Notes under the pieces: generated by a model
What the model was told of the DNA's origin: nothing
Seen by the model: the letters and a program-made list of their open reading frames with translations, nothing else
Database searches by the model: none
Program-made: the position numbers and the translations under genes
NCBI GenBank assembly: GCA_040905465.1
Contig: JBBDRK010000033.1
Coordinates: 20,249-41,574 of the forward strand
Reading direction: 5' to 3'
Length of the DNA: 21,326 bases
DNA from: Trueperaceae bacterium
GTDB lineage: Bacteria > Deinococcota > Deinococci > Deinococcales > Trueperaceae
In this document: positions 1 to 4,302 of the stretch, piece after piece
Layout: each line of letters opens with the position of its first letter
How positions within the stretch are numbered: position 1 is the first letter of the stretch

Positions 1-55
1 CGATCAGGCCTCGGCCGCGCTGAACTGGGCCGATCAGGTCTCGGCCGCGCTGAAC
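1..55. repeat. Direct repeat, 25 bp x2 (30-bp period), duplicating the 3' end and stop codon of the adjacent minus-strand gene
   Basis: 1-25 CGATCAGGCCTCGGCCGCGCTGAAC vs 31-55 CGATCAGGTCTCGGCCGCGCTGAAC (24/25 identical); may continue past the window edge. Confidence 0.85.
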
Positions 56-636
56 ACGTCGCAGAACCAGGCTCCGGCGTAGCGCAGGACGTCGTAGGTT
101 GCGCCGGAGCGCGCGTTCACATGGCTGGCCGCCCAGGCTTCGGCCTGTGCCTCGTCGGCAAACGGTCCGACCATCGTGTCCCGGCCCGACCAGGACTCGG
201 GTTCGGTGGGCAGCGCCAGCTCCCTGCGCGTGCCCGAGCGGTCCTGTACCACACGAAAGTAACCGAATCGCCGGCGCGCCTCCTCTTCGACGACCGCCGC
301 CAGCAGGTCGTCCAGTCGCTGCAACTGGCTCCGGTCCGGTCCCGGAAACGCCATTATCAGGATCCCGTCCTGCACCTCGGCCTCGAAGAGGTGCTGATCG
401 CCGAGGGCGACCTGCAGCGGTCCCTCGGCCAGCCCTCTCAGTTCGGCGTCCGTCCGCAACACCGGTACCGAACAGATCATGCGGTAGGTCTGGGGGTCGT
501 CGCTGCGCAGCGCCGCCAGATCGAAGCCGGCCTCGCGTGCCCTGCGGATTGCCGCCCGGGAGGGCGTGTGGTGTGAGAGGCGGCGATCGTCGTTCGGTTC
601 GACGTCGCGCCGGCTGCCTTCGCTTTCGTCGCTCAT
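34..636 (-). CDS. Hypothetical protein (200 aa)
   Basis: ATG at 636 preceded by a strong SD (GAGGAGGAGA on the minus strand); host-like codon usage. The 40-aa extension to 756 in the ORF track runs through a tandem repeat and is unlikely to be real. Confidence 0.75.
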   Translation of the reverse strand: MSDESEGSRRDVEPNDDRRLSHHTPSRAAIRRAREAGFDLAALRSDDPQTYRMICSVPVLRTDAELRGLAEGPLQVALGDQHLFEAEVQDGILIMAFPGPDRSQLQRLDDLLAAVVEEEARRRFGYFRVVQDRSGTRRELALPTEPESWSGRDTMVGPFADEAQAEAWAASHVNARSGATYDVLRYAGAWFCDVFSAAET

Positions 637-684
637 TCTCCTCCTCGAGACGGCCCGGAACACCCGGCGCGGCAAGGATCGCGT

Positions 685-745
685 CGAACCGGACCAGACG
701 AACCGGGCCAGCCGAACCGGACCAAGCGAACCGGACCAGCCGAAC
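685..745. repeat. Intergenic tandem repeat, 14-bp unit CGAACCGGACCAGC, 4 copies plus a partial fifth
   Basis: 685 CGAACCGGACCAGA, 699 CGAACCGGGCCAGC, 713 CGAACCGGACCAAG, 727 CGAACCGGACCAGC, 741 CGAAC. Confidence 0.9.
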
Positions 746-771
746 GGCCCACCCACCCGGAACGTCCAGGC

Positions 772-1968
772 TCAGGCCACCGGCGCCAGCGCCTCCTCGA
801 AAAGTGCCGGCAGATGCGGCTCGGACAGGACCCTCGCCAGGGCGTCCATCAGGCGCAGGTAGTGCTCCGGCCGGGCGTTCTCACCCATCAGCCCGAGGCG
901 CCAGATCCGGCCGGACAGCTCGCCTAGCCCGCCGGCCACGCTTATCCCATGATCGTAGCGCAGGCGCCGGCGTACCTCTTCGTCGGCCAGACCTGTCGGC
1001 ACAGTCAGGGCGAGCACCGTGGCCAGCCGGTGCTCGACGGCAACCAGCGGCCGGAAGCCGATGCTGGCGAGAGCCCGCTCGGTGGCGGCGGCCAGGAGAG
1101 CCGCGCGCCGCGCCCGCGCCTCGGCGCCTTCGTCGAGAGCGGCCCGTACCGCCTCTCCCGTAGCCCAGTGCAACTGCACCGGAACCGTATGGTGGTAGCT
1201 ACGCCCACCCTCGCCGTTCTCCCAGTAGCTCCGCATTCCCAGTGCGTCGCTGTACCAGCTCGCCACCGGAGTTCGCCGCGCCTCGATCGCTGCCATGGCC
1301 CGGGCACTGAACGCCACAGGCGCCAGTCCGGGAGGTGCGGACAGGCACTTCTGCGAGCCTGTGTAGGCGTAGTCGATGCCCCAGTCGGTCATCGCGAATG
1401 GGAGCATTCCGACGGTAGTCACTGCGTCTACCGCGAAAAGGGCCCCGGTTTCGCGCGCCACGGCCCCGAGTGCCGGTACCGGATTCATGACCCCGCTGCT
1501 GGTCTCGCCGTGCACCACGGCGAGCAGTTTAGGCCGAAACCTCTCGGCCTCGGCGCGCACGCGCTCGATGTCCACCGGCTCGCCCAGAGAAAAGCTAACG
1601 AGTCCCACGGCCGCGCCTTGACGCCTGGCCATCTCTGCCATGCGGTCTCCAAAGACGCCGTTGGACACTACCAGAACCCGCTCACCAGGCTCGAGCAGGT
1701 TCATGAATCCGGCCTCCATCGCCAACGAGCCGGTGCCCGACAGGAGCGCAGCGAAGGCGCCAGGGCCACTTCCGTACAGCTCGTGCAGGCTCGCTACGAT
1801 GCCGTCGTTGTAGGCGAATACGTCCGGATCCATATGGCCGCGCACGGGCCAGTGCAGCGCCGCCAGGGCTCGCGGGTGAAGCGGTGTCGGACCCGGCGTC
1901 AGAAGCAGTACGTCGTCGCTTTGCTCCGGCCTCGGATGCCCGGGCCCTGGGCTGTGGTTGGCGCTCAT
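772..1968 (-). CDS. PLP-dependent class V aminotransferase (alanine-glyoxylate / serine-pyruvate aminotransferase family), 398 aa
   Basis: Motifs [37 protein letters not shown] (PLP lysine), YHHT, WRLGLMG; start placed at the ATG at 1968 (MSANH), downstream of the leader terminator. Confidence 0.9.
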
Positions 1969-2014
1969 CTGGGTCTCTTTTCCCGGCCACCGTTTCCCGG
2001 CAGCGCGGCTCAAC

Positions 2015-2043
2015 AAAAAACGACCACGCCGAAGGCGGGTCAT
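2015..2043 (-). terminator. Intrinsic terminator in the 5' leader of the aminotransferase (attenuator)
   Basis: Minus strand AUGACC-CGCC-UUC-GGCG-U-GGUCGU followed by a U-tract, about 46 nt before the ATG at 1968. Confidence 0.75.
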
Positions 2044-2077
2044 CGAACGGTGGCGGGTGCCGGTGAGGCTCCGCCGG

Positions 2078-2107
2078 TCAGGAAGCTCGAGCGACTGATG
2101 GAAGCAT
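2078..2107 (-). CDS. Putative leaderless leader peptide MLPSVARAS
   Basis: ATG 7 nt after the TAAACT -10 box; ATG CTT CCA TCA GTC GCT CGA GCT TCC TGA; immediately upstream of alternative hairpins and a terminator. Confidence 0.4.
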
Positions 2108-2114
2108 GCCAGGG

Positions 2115-2143
2115 AGTTTACCGGAGCCCCGACGAGCTGTAAA
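2115..2143 (-). promoter_or_regulatory. Sigma70-type promoter for the aminotransferase leader
   Basis: Minus strand TTTACA (2143-2138) - 17 bp - TAAACT (2120-2115), with an AT-rich tract just upstream. Confidence 0.65.
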
Positions 2144-2200
2144 GTTGAAAAGTTGGCATGCCTGGTGGCCAAAGCCGCTGGCACGTGTGTCCACACCCGC

Positions 2201-2230
2201 TTGTGAGCACGGCGAGGGTCTTGCTATAAT
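2201..2230 (+). promoter_or_regulatory. Sigma70-type promoter of the rimP-nusA-infB operon
   Basis: TTGTGA (2201-2206) - 18 bp - perfect TATAAT (2225-2230) with an extended -10 TG. Confidence 0.7.
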
Positions 2231-2284
2231 CCGTTCGGTAAATCCCGACGCCCTGTTGCTGCGCATCAGGACACGACCGTATTC

Positions 2285-2314
2285 GGGTGGGTGCCTGGGG
2301 ACCCACCTTATTTT
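2285..2314 (+). terminator. rimP-leader attenuator hairpin
   Basis: GGTGGGT (2286-2292) / ACCCACC (2301-2307) stem followed by TTATTTT, between the promoter and the rimP start; fits the widely conserved rimP leader terminator. Confidence 0.7.
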
Positions 2315-2350
2315 GTTGTCACGGTTAGGAGATTGGGAGCAGGAGGTGCA

Positions 2351-2794
2351 ATGGATTTGGAGCAAGCAGCCAACGATGTCTTGGCGCCGCTCGGTTTCGA
2401 GGTCCTGGAGTTGACCATCAGCTCGAAGGGCAGCGGAAAGCGGCTGCTTTTGCGCATCGACAGGCTCGACGAGGGGATCGTTTCGGTAGACGATGTCGCG
2501 GTGGCGTCCGAGGCCTTTGGCCTCGAGCTGGACCGCCTCGACCCGTTCGATCGCCCATATGCTCTGGAGGTCGAGTCACCCGGTCCGCAGCGGCCGCTGA
2601 CCCGGCCCCGCCATTTCCAGCGCTTTCACGACCTGCTGGCCAAGGTCAGGGTCGGTAGCGAGGCGTTTACCGGCCGTATACGCAAGGTGGAGGATGACAC
2701 CATCACCTTCGAGGTCGACAAGAACGAACGGACGGTCCGCGTCGGCGAGCTCACCAGTGCCCGCCTCGCGGAATGGCCCGACCAACCCCGGTAG
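2351..2794 (+). CDS. rimP: Ribosome maturation factor RimP (147 aa)
   Basis: SD AGGAGG at 2341-2346 before the ATG at 2351; motifs LRIDR, YALEVESPGPQRPL; directly upstream of nusA. Confidence 0.93.
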   Translation: MDLEQAANDVLAPLGFEVLELTISSKGSGKRLLLRIDRLDEGIVSVDDVAVASEAFGLELDRLDPFDRPYALEVESPGPQRPLTRPRHFQRFHDLLAKVRVGSEAFTGRIRKVEDDTITFEVDKNERTVRVGELTSARLAEWPDQPR

Positions 2795-2892
2795 CTCGAG
2801 ACGGAGGGGCGATCGCGCCGACCCCACCCGCAGCCGTCCGCATCCTGGACGGCAACGCAAATACGGCGCGCACAACCGAATAGGGAGAAGGT

Positions 2893-4302
2893 ATGAACAA
2901 AGATTTCATGGATGCGTTGAACCAGCTCGCGGCCGAGCGGAACCTCGACCGGGACCAGCTGCTCACCTCGTTCGAGGAGTCGCTCGAACAGGCTTTCGAG
3001 CGCAACATCGAGCCGGGAAAACAGATCGAAGTTACGCTCGACCCGGAAACCGGCGAAATGGAAGTGCTGGTAGTCCGGCGGGTGGTCGAGGAGATCGAGG
3101 ACCCCGACAAGGAGATCAAGCTCGAGGAAGCACTGGAGCTCGATGACACCGTCGAGGTGGGGATGGAGATGGAGTTCCCCGTCGATCCCGACAAGTTCAC
3201 TCGGATCGCGGTACAGACGACCAAACAGGTGATCACCCAGAAGATCCGCGAGGCGGAGCGAGCGATCGTTTTCGAGGAGTACAAGGACCGCGCCGGCGAC
3301 GTGCTCACTGCCGTTGTCTCCCGGACCGACAACAAGCGCAACGTATTTGTCGATCTGGGCCGGGGCGAAGCTATCATGCCGCCCAAGGAGCAGATCCAGG
3401 GCGAGCGCTACATGGTCGGCATGCGGGTGAAGGTGTATGTCGCCAAGGTCGAGCTCTCGAGTCGTGGCCCGTCGATCCTGGTATCGCGGGCGGCTCCGCA
3501 ACTGCTGGAGTTCCTCATGCGTCAGGAGATCCCCGAGGTCGCGGACGGCACCGTCGAGATCAAGGCCGTCGCGCGCGAAGCGGGTCAGCGTTCGAAGGTG
3601 GCTGTCACCAGCACCAACCCCAACGTAGACCCGATCGGCGCATGTATCGGCCACCGCGGTTCACGAATCCAGTCGGTAACCGGTGAGTTGCAGCGCGAAC
3701 GCGTTGACATAATCATGTGGGACTCCGTCCCGCGCGAGTTCATCCGCAATGCGCTGTCCCCCGCCAAGGTGGGGACTATCGAGCTCGACGCCGACGCCGA
3801 GGAGGCGAAGGTGCTCGTAGCCAGCGACCAGCTTTCGCTGGCAATCGGCAAGGGTGGCCAGAACGTCCGCCTGGCGGCAAAACTTACCGGCTTCAAGATC
3901 GACCTCGTCCCCTCGGAGACGGTCAGCGATCTCGACGCGGCACTCCAGGCGGTGGCGTCACGCGGCACCGACATCGGCACCACCAGCGACACCAAGCGTG
4001 CGGCGTTCGACGCGCTGTTCAGCGCCAGCCCGGACGATGACGAAAACGCCGGAGCCGACGCTGCCGCGGCCGCGGCCGCAACCACTTCCGACGTCACGGC
4101 GGAAGAGGACGCCACGGGAAGTGCCAAGGAAGGTGCCGCGGCGAGCGCCACCGACGGCACCACCGACGATGCCACCGCGGGCTCGACGGCGGAAACGGCA
4201 GACGAGACGACCTCGGAAAATGGCGACGCAGAAACGACCACGGCGTCGACCGCCGCAGAATCCGATGAAAACCGCGAGAGCTCCCGGGAGGGCGGCTCCT
4301 GA
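2893..4302 (+). CDS. nusA: Transcription termination/antitermination factor NusA with a long acidic low-complexity C-terminal tail
   Basis: Motifs RIAVQTTKQVI, EIPEVADG, REAGQRSKVAV, DPIGACIG, QLSLAIGKGGQNVRLAAKLTG (S1/KH domains). Confidence 0.97.
   Translation: MNKDFMDALNQLAAERNLDRDQLLTSFEESLEQAFERNIEPGKQIEVTLDPETGEMEVLVVRRVVEEIEDPDKEIKLEEALELDDTVEVGMEMEFPVDPDKFTRIAVQTTKQVITQKIREAERAIVFEEYKDRAGDVLTAVVSRTDNKRNVFVDLGRGEAIMPPKEQIQGERYMVGMRVKVYVAKVELSSRGPSILVSRAAPQLLEFLMRQEIPEVADGTVEIKAVAREAGQRSKVAVTSTNPNVDPIGACIGHRGSRIQSVTGELQRERVDIIMWDSVPREFIRNALSPAKVGTIELDADAEEAKVLVASDQLSLAIGKGGQNVRLAAKLTGFKIDLVPSETVSDLDAALQAVASRGTDIGTTSDTKRAAFDALFSASPDDDENAGADAAAAAAATTSDVTAEEDATGSAKEGAAASATDGTTDDATAGSTAETADETTSENGDAETTTASTAAESDENRESSREGGS

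Follow-up and report, generated by a model that had tools for sequence, protein, structure and literature searches.

In the classical trp, his, and pheST attenuators of Enterobacteria, overlapping 1:2, 2:3, and 3:4 helices are combined with runs of regulatory codons. The pyrBI attenuator has no antiterminator; polymerase pausing there is sensitive to UTP, and the leader ORF runs through the terminator. The leader analyzed here, which contains a short upstream ORF (uORF), a hairpin (P1), and an intrinsic terminator (T; Table 1), shares with trp, his, and pheST a leader peptide with regulatory codons, a terminator before the gene, and a hairpin just ahead of the point where the ribosome would stall. 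Unlike them, it has one or two regulatory codons instead of a run, a uORF without a Shine-Dalgarno sequence, and P1 and T that do not overlap (the linker being 5-9 nt) and show no conserved alternative pairing. Like pyrBI it lacks an antiterminator, and a ribosome on the leader ORF that physically prevents terminator formation would be shared with pyrBI by the version from Deinococcales outside the Trueperaceae; unlike the pyrBI ORF, the Trueperaceae uORF ends ~35 nt before T.

Nearer in phylogeny, 14 leaderless leader peptides of 10-33 amino acids, with the transcription start at the A of the ATG, precede aminoacyl-tRNA synthetase or amino-acid genes in Deinococcus deserti (TyrRS, ThrRS, TrpRS2, trpEGD, MetRS, AspRS, leuC, LeuRS, asd, CysRS, ilvBH, leuA, DAHP synthase, and PheRS), and they were predicted to act in transcription attenuation (de Groot et al. 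2014, PMC4007540). The present leader is from the same phylum, Deinococcota, and resembles them in having a -10 element just before an ATG that is probably 5′-terminal and a cognate residue in the peptide. Unlike here, none of the 14 peptides named in the relevant passages of that paper serves alaS or an aminotransferase, and those passages describe neither RNA structures nor spacing rules for them (PMC4007540). The mycobacterial whiB7 "Ala leader" has an alanine-enriched uORF at which stalling leads to terminator read-through and more alanine aminotransferase (aspC), and its authors left open why alanine is sensed in this way (PMC10274678). That route is not direct, as it passes from the uORF by way of WhiB7 to the aspC promoter, and its uORF, as described there, is long and variable, senses many amino acids, and comes with an antiterminator, whereas here the leader lies directly on the aminotransferase gene and on alaS (PMC10274678). 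Mycobacterial polycysteine leaderless uORFs are amino-acid-responsive attenuators which carry runs of Cys codons, unlike the present leader (bioRxiv 10.1101/834739). When we looked for cis-acting alanine-specific attenuators in the literature searched, only the indirect whiB7 "Ala leader" turned up. Judged by its sequence patterns, the element would best be filed as an alanine-specific, leaderless, family-wide leader-peptide attenuator that is absent from Rfam and has no antiterminator.

We analyzed a window of 21,326 nucleotides (the whole stretch of DNA under consideration) in which a gene for a class-V aminotransferase stands divergent from rimP and nusA (Table 1). Its best solved relatives are 2yri, 1vjo, and entries of the alanine-glyoxylate/serine-pyruvate aminotransferase (AGT/SPT) family, and include a Thermus class-V aminotransferase; no NCBIfam equivalog scored above its cut-off for this protein. 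An ortholog is present in 80 of the 121 genomes of the family. The genes 3′ of it vary from genus to genus, so that no operon partner is informative on function. The enzyme may make alanine from pyruvate. In the window it is followed by a 240-aa ORF (34-756, minus strand) that has no Pfam or NCBIfam match and is perhaps not a gene.

Table 1. Positions of the leader elements and adjacent genes in the window
Feature	Position	Strand	Remarks
-35 hexamer TTTACA	2138..2143	-	From promoter scan; promoter as a whole 2143-2115
-10 hexamer TAAACT	2115..2120	-	17 nt spacer; 7 nt 5′ of uORF ATG
uORF ATG CTT CCA TCA GTC GCT CGA GCT TCC TGA (MLPSVARAS-stop)	2078..2107	-	9 codons, ATG 2107 to TGA 2078
Ala-Arg-Ala codons GCT CGA GCT	2084..2092	-	Second Ala (2086-2084) is the candidate for sensing, 11 nt 5′ of P1
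Hairpin P1, GGCGG..GCC-loop-GGC..CCGCC	2052..2075	-	Variable sequence, conserved G+C base
Linker	2044..2051	-	Between P1 and T
Intrinsic terminator T, AUGACCCGCC-UUC-GGCG(U)GGUCGU, then U-run	2012..2043	-	Stem 2043-2020, one bulged U; U-run to 2015
Class-V aminotransferase gene (AGT/SPT family, 398 aa)	772..1968	-	ATG 1968, stop 772; PF00266, E 5e-23
rimP	2351-2794	+	Divergent from aminotransferase gene
nusA	2893-4302	+	Divergent from aminotransferase gene

A promoter scan of positions 1500-3000 returned two promoter-like sites against 0.1 expected, and it recovered the promoter TTTACA-17-TAAACT that a preliminary description of this DNA had pointed out. The hexamer TTTACA occurs in all 56 leaders that fit the strict pattern (56 of the 110 loci examined). 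In relatives, the -10 box (TAnnnT) stands 5-10 nt 5′ of the uORF ATG or GTG with no Shine-Dalgarno sequence between, an arrangement that would suit a leaderless uORF start. The intrinsic terminator that had been placed at 2043-2015 is also borne out, as a stem with U-run that is conserved and covarying; its bulged U explains why a simple terminator scan missed it. T has a predicted free energy of -13.8 kcal/mol, and in the free leader its pair probability is 0.98. The complete leader gains no stability over its shuffled versions (z = -0.20). The impression that the glycine, T-box, ZTP, guanidine, SAM, and TPP consensus sequences are not represented agrees with Rfam 15, in which neither these nor any other family gave a match at the gathering score over the whole window or at E <= 10 over positions 1940-2200.

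A DNA-level search for the leader in 60 relatives gave only three weak matches, and leaders were therefore collected by protein anchoring, that is, from the regions upstream of aminotransferase orthologs. The same layout was found there, in matches with a G+C content of 0.33-0.74. We aligned 29 leaders (A1) and built a covariance model from them; A1 and A2 include one row (L032) from an unpublished genome (G034), on which no claim rests. Pairing in P1 and T together extends to 88.3% of the cells of A1, a value reached in none of 500 shuffles. P1, the inner hairpin of the preliminary description, is paired in 93.4% of cells and has changed on both sides at all nine pairs; T is paired in 83.6% of cells in A1. 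Mutual information (with APC, 64 leaders) puts the top covarying Watson-Crick column pairs in P1 and finds no such pairs outside P1 and T. T, a conserved and covarying hairpin with a U-run, is an intrinsic terminator that comes after the leader ORF and before the structural gene. The linker is 7 nt long in 33 of the 64 leaders and 5-9 nt in 61; by that count it is 9 nt in the window, T being begun there one base later than in the coordinates used in Table 1.

The covariance model recovered the element in 57 of the 72 aminotransferase loci given to it and, over whole genomes, in 22 of 36 other Trueperaceae; in other families of the order it gave no strong-score match. Among the 15 loci lacking a model match, diverged versions are seen by eye in several (L071, L074, L082, L084, L091, L083, L086, and L092), L059 and L088 have too little upstream DNA, L070 has Arg-Val, L089 and L094 have another form, and in L095 and L096 none was seen. 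The element stays 5′ of the aminotransferase gene though both flanking genes change.

The 5′ part of the leader has the marks of a reading frame. An in-frame ATG or GTG lies within the aligned stretch in 59 of 64 unique leaders, the other five having longer ORFs that start further upstream, and of the 77 ATG/GTG triplets 5′ of the CGA codon, 70 are in frame and three and four out of frame. The uORF peptides are mostly 8-11 residues long, with Ala making up 25% of residues, and the stop codons are freely interchanged (TGA in 27, TAG in 20, and TAA in 17 of the 64 leaders). The Arg codon CGA is present in 61 of the 64; the codon after the Arg position is Ala in 63 (GCT 46, GCG 9, GCA 7, GCC 1), and the codon before it is Ala in 35, using all four codons, or Pro in 12, the third base varying in both Ala codons that flank the Arg. 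In-frame starts, synonymous changes at Ala, and interchange of stops mark the conserved 5′ part as a reading frame and the uORF as probably translated; these patterns over 64 leaders are those of a short leader ORF with regulatory amino-acid codons. Its position relative to P1 is fixed through the Ala codon, whose first base lies 11-12 nt before the first P1 pair in 62 of the 64 leaders. The stop codon is not fixed in this way and can lie up to 4 nt ahead of P1 or as far as 18 nt into it, apart from the degenerate outlier L058 (11 nt before), in which the uORF reads MHSA-stop without Arg-Ala and the terminator has no U-run. The other variant, L070, replaces Arg-Ala by Arg-Val (CGA GTT).

CGA accounts for ~10% of the Arg codons of this genome and GCT for ~9% of its Ala codons. 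Alanine sensing offers no reason for CGA to be invariant; an RNA-level or tRNA-specific constraint might lie behind it, or an arginine co-signal. The I:A wobble at CGA may slow decoding of the Ala codon that follows. Selenocysteine-type recoding was rejected because all three stop codons occur.

Further copies of the element, beside the one before the aminotransferase gene, lie directly 5′ of alaS in four genomes of three genera (G033, G078, G017, and G003). Their uORFs end in P-R-A-A-stop (G033 and G078), L-P-A-A-stop (G017), and Q-A-A-L-T-A-V-H-stop (G003); all four have Ala at the same place in the alignment, and the last two lack Arg. At 27 of 30 alaS loci inspected, that of the present genome included, no element was found 5′ of alaS. 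Where alaS has the leader (L150, L151, L153), the box between T and alaS reads TAAACT without TG extension, as against TATAAT in relatives without the leader, and looks like a weakened proximal promoter.

A scan of the present genome for a leaderless uORF followed by a terminator gave three such matches, the present leader among them, and a fourth without a -35 box. A leader of this kind precedes pheS just outside the window (L207/L208; G000 contig C33, ~19598-19470, minus strand), with the promoter TTGACA-17-TAGACT and the uORF MASDTASPFIS-stop, whose Phe codon lies 11 nt before a GCG-based hairpin; this hairpin comes immediately behind the stop codon and is followed by a 6-nt linker and a terminator. 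As in the aminotransferase leader, no structure competing with the terminator was found there. A crude pattern detected a leader at 16 of 30 pheS loci in the family; 15 of these 16 carry Phe, which stands three codons before the stop in 14, and the distance from Phe to hairpin is 11-12 nt in 10 of 15; in the remaining cases the hairpin as predicted has additional outer pairs, which alter the value. With Ala before the aminotransferase gene and alaS and Phe before pheS, specificity follows the codon, as in classical attenuation. By eye, many pheS uORFs hold a covarying 5′ hairpin, GAAGCC..GGCUUC. The pheS gene often lies 1-4 kb 3′ of the aminotransferase gene on the same strand (e.g., G001, G002, G011, G028, G033, and G076), so that Ala and Phe leaders are neighbors in many genomes. 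Another leaderless uORF, rich in D/N (MASDPHVRSPACDSNPDNSDAGTLGS followed by a stop codon) and with a terminator, is found on G000 contig C42 (minus strand); the gene after it has an N-terminus that we take to be like that of an AspRS-type ligase.

With moderate confidence, we read the element as a ribosome-mediated leader-peptide transcription attenuator that would sense the supply of charged tRNA-Ala. Transcription would begin at or next to the ATG of the 9-codon uORF, and a 70S ribosome would translate the uORF as RNA polymerase proceeds through P1 and T. A ribosome covers ~11-12 nt of mRNA 3′ of the A-site codon, as known from ribosome profiling. With the Ala codon 11-12 nt before P1, this coverage implies that P1 would be whole only while the ribosome awaits Ala-tRNA: a ribosome waiting at the Ala codon after CGA would leave P1 fully formed, and one that advances to the stop would have to open the conserved G+C (GCG) base of P1. 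Alanine starvation would then raise read-through into the aminotransferase gene, whose product would make alanine from pyruvate. The parts of the leader, their conservation, the reading frame, the spacing, and the links to alaS and to a pheS look-alike are observed; translation, the leaderless start, the alanine signal, and a response in this direction are putative.

Arrest by the nascent peptide would account for some of the same features. Under that proposal, a C-terminal Arg-Ala-X stalls the ribosome on its own or with a small molecule, in the manner of TnaC or of SecM/RAPP-like peptides, and it is this arrested ribosome, instead of a hungry codon, that sets P1. Arg-Ala is indeed almost invariant, an R-A-x-stop register is kept in 39 of the 64 leaders, and the stop is followed by C in 49, which in E. 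coli is a weak termination context. The leader R-A would also sit at -2/-1 of the P-site residue, like that of the RAPP/RAGP peptides; the RAPP/SecM-type motif combines R-A at -2/-1 with a P-site P or G and an A-site Pro. That motif, as so defined, does not occur in the leaders: the residue after R-A is S, T, F, N, Y, I, L, A, or P, followed by a stop or any codon, and the Pro-Pro of RAPP is missing. Moreover, the stop falls 4 to 10 codons past the Arg position in 24 of the 64 leaders with the P1 spacing still fixed, Arg is missing from the alaS copies in G017 and G003, and the pheS leader keeps this geometry although it has S-P-F and lacks R-A. Arg also shows no synonymous change, which a constraint on the peptide would permit. 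We therefore regard peptide arrest as unlikely, and return to tRNA-Ala sensing as the preferred reading.

The leaders of other Deinococcales bear on the direction of the response. In metagenome-assembled genomes of the order from outside the Trueperaceae, the aminotransferase ortholog is 55-62% identical, and the free leader of these sister lineages (L085, L086, L090, L092, L093, L089, and L094) is predicted to form a single rod (-33 to -51 kcal/mol). The uORF supplies the 5′ side of this rod (e.g., CUGACCGCG directly ahead of CGA GCU), and the 3′ side reaches up to the U-run. With the uORF masked, the base helix was lost in all five leaders so tested, those of the seven that have CGA-GCN, and only weak local hairpins were left. 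As the uORF is itself the 5′ strand of the terminator, a ribosome held there would block the terminator directly, and the logic would run from starvation to read-through. In a Deinococcus-like family of the same order (25 loci, L182-L206), the ortholog is itself leaderless and has neither uORF nor terminator; it is preceded by two to four inverted repeats GCAAT-N4-5-ATTGC that look like candidate operators of a transcription factor. If so, the same gene would be tightly controlled by a different, DNA-level device.

The preliminary description had explained the leader as a switch, in which a helix between 2095-2085 and 2048-2039 acts as an antiterminator against T, with a metabolite, protein, or translating ribosome deciding between the two. 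The helix can indeed be drawn in the window, where it overlaps the first bases of T; at -12.2 kcal/mol its duplex is unsurpassed among the cognate pairs of the 29 leaders and equaled in L062 and L087. Conservation is lacking: across these leaders only 49.0% of its cells pair, 421 of 500 shuffles do as well, cognate duplexes are no better than non-cognate ones (-7.38 vs. -7.67 kcal/mol), and the cognate partner ranks anywhere from 2 to 28 of 29. The covariation check on ortholog upstream regions therefore came out in favor of P1 and T (0/500 shuffles) and against this helix, which exists only in the lineage of this genome. Mutual exclusion of helix and terminator is contradicted by the pair probability of T, which at 0.98 in the free leader leaves no sign of competition. 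A ribosome on the uORF would, furthermore, destroy the helix and favor termination on starvation, opposite to the logic of the sister lineages. As an account of the element, this switch is very improbable.

In Trueperaceae, T has a local 5′ arm of its own, and we found no other antiterminator in place of the helix. Over the 29 leaders, the mean probability of T is 0.90 in the free leader, 0.90 with a ribosome stalled at Ala masked, and 0.90 with one stalled at the stop masked, and when the 3′ arm of T was removed, averaged pair probabilities gave no consistent partner for its 5′ arm. Comparison of cognate with non-cognate duplexes for 19 segment pairs gave no cognate-specific complementarity in the 17 besides P1 and T, except a weak signal between the uORF and the 3′ strand of P1 (p = 0.0025) that vanishes once the uORF is split. 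The Trueperaceae leaders thus yielded no antiterminator that excludes T and is favored by a stalled ribosome. Of the regulatory switch first proposed there remain a premature terminator acting in cis and the translating ribosome, one of the signals that had been listed; the antiterminator falls away and a metabolite is disfavored. Two further candidates were rejected by eye: tRNA-like or T-box-like pairing of T with a tRNA 3′ end requires a UGGN word that is not conserved, and re-initiation at the AUG in GAUGACC would find AUG or GUG in only ~20 of 29 leaders and would act in the wrong regulatory direction.

The failure to find a switch made of RNA alone makes a trans-acting partner attractive, and P1 with its flanking UGACC-like words might be an RNA that binds a protein or metabolite, the bound factor blocking T and the reading frame being incidental. 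Conservation of individual nucleotides is seen in the P1 base (GCG/CGC), in CGAGC, and in GAUGACC, and UGACC-like words stand on both sides of P1. This proposal is improbable when set against the frame, stop-codon, and third-base patterns, which are those of a translated ORF, and the P1 loops and most stem positions, which vary freely and so offer no conserved pocket. Amino-acid specificity goes with the codon, which is Ala in the aminotransferase and alaS leaders and Phe in those of pheS, and Rfam is empty even at E <= 10. A metabolite riboswitch in particular is disfavored, since the 5′ part reads as an ORF and the alaS (Ala-Ala) and pheS (Phe) leaders share the scaffold.

Folding predictions that give T with or without a ribosome mask would also suit an independent small gene or sRNA, in which promoter, uORF, P1, and T yield a constitutively terminated transcript of ~95 nt that acts in trans or insulates, the aminotransferase being controlled otherwise. 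The promoter is unusually conserved, and a -10-like box persists between T and alaS at the loci that bear the element (by eye). Against this, in the window the U-run is only 46 nt away from the ATG at 1968 and the interval holds no promoter-like site, the element keeps its place before the aminotransferase gene while the flanking genes change, and a terminator built from the uORF, as in the sister lineages, makes sense only in cis. We accordingly think an independent transcript quite improbable and retain attenuation of the aminotransferase gene as the preferred reading.

For that reading, the link between ribosome position (P1 intact or opened) and T in Trueperaceae can only be inferred, as no structure that competes with T was found. 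Candidates for the link are a polymerase pause stabilized by the hairpin or some other action that P1, when intact, would have on the polymerase; coupling between ribosome and polymerase; a factor that binds P1 in trans; and stabilization of the read-through mRNA by a ribosome stalled at its 5′ end. A broader proposal, tentative and on balance rather unlikely, is that the Trueperaceae have a generic scaffold made up of a leaderless uORF, a codon 11-12 nt before a GCG hairpin, a linker of 5-9 nt, and an independent terminator with no antiterminator, in Ala and Phe versions, which, if it regulates, would represent a novel route from ribosome to terminator. One possibility is that the hairpin, when held intact, acts on RNA polymerase (by hairpin-stabilized pausing, put-like modification, or coupling) instead of sequestering the terminator.

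If attenuation as proposed holds, an aminotransferase of the AGT/SPT family, and AlaRS in some genera, would be under direct control by tRNA-Ala charging, which in turn suggests that the aminotransferase is an alanine-forming transaminase in Trueperaceae. It would pose a testable question of mechanism, in that the codon-to-hairpin spacing equals the leading edge of the ribosome, the Phe leader shares the scaffold, and there is no antiterminator. For annotation, the family-wide uORF and RNA motif are missing from Rfam.

Two features of the surrounding sequence may be added. The aminotransferase frame (772-2196, minus strand) is open for 76 codons 5′ of the ATG at 1968, through T and P1, and is +1 relative to the uORF. 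Frameshifting (+1) or read-through into this frame was considered and rejected, because the frame, open to 2196 here, is closed in L006 of the same genus, so that its openness in the window is probably due to chance in G+C-rich DNA. On the opposite strand, upstream of the rimP ATG, the stretch 2201-2317 resembles a leader of rimP-nusA. A promoter-like TTGTGA-18-TATAAT (2201-2230) is followed there by a hairpin, GGGTGGGT..ACCCACC and TATTTTGTTG (2285-2317), and a GGGYGGG/CCCACCC hairpin with U-run recurs 5′ of rimP in relatives (as reverse complement). This hairpin with U-run may serve to attenuate the nusA operon.
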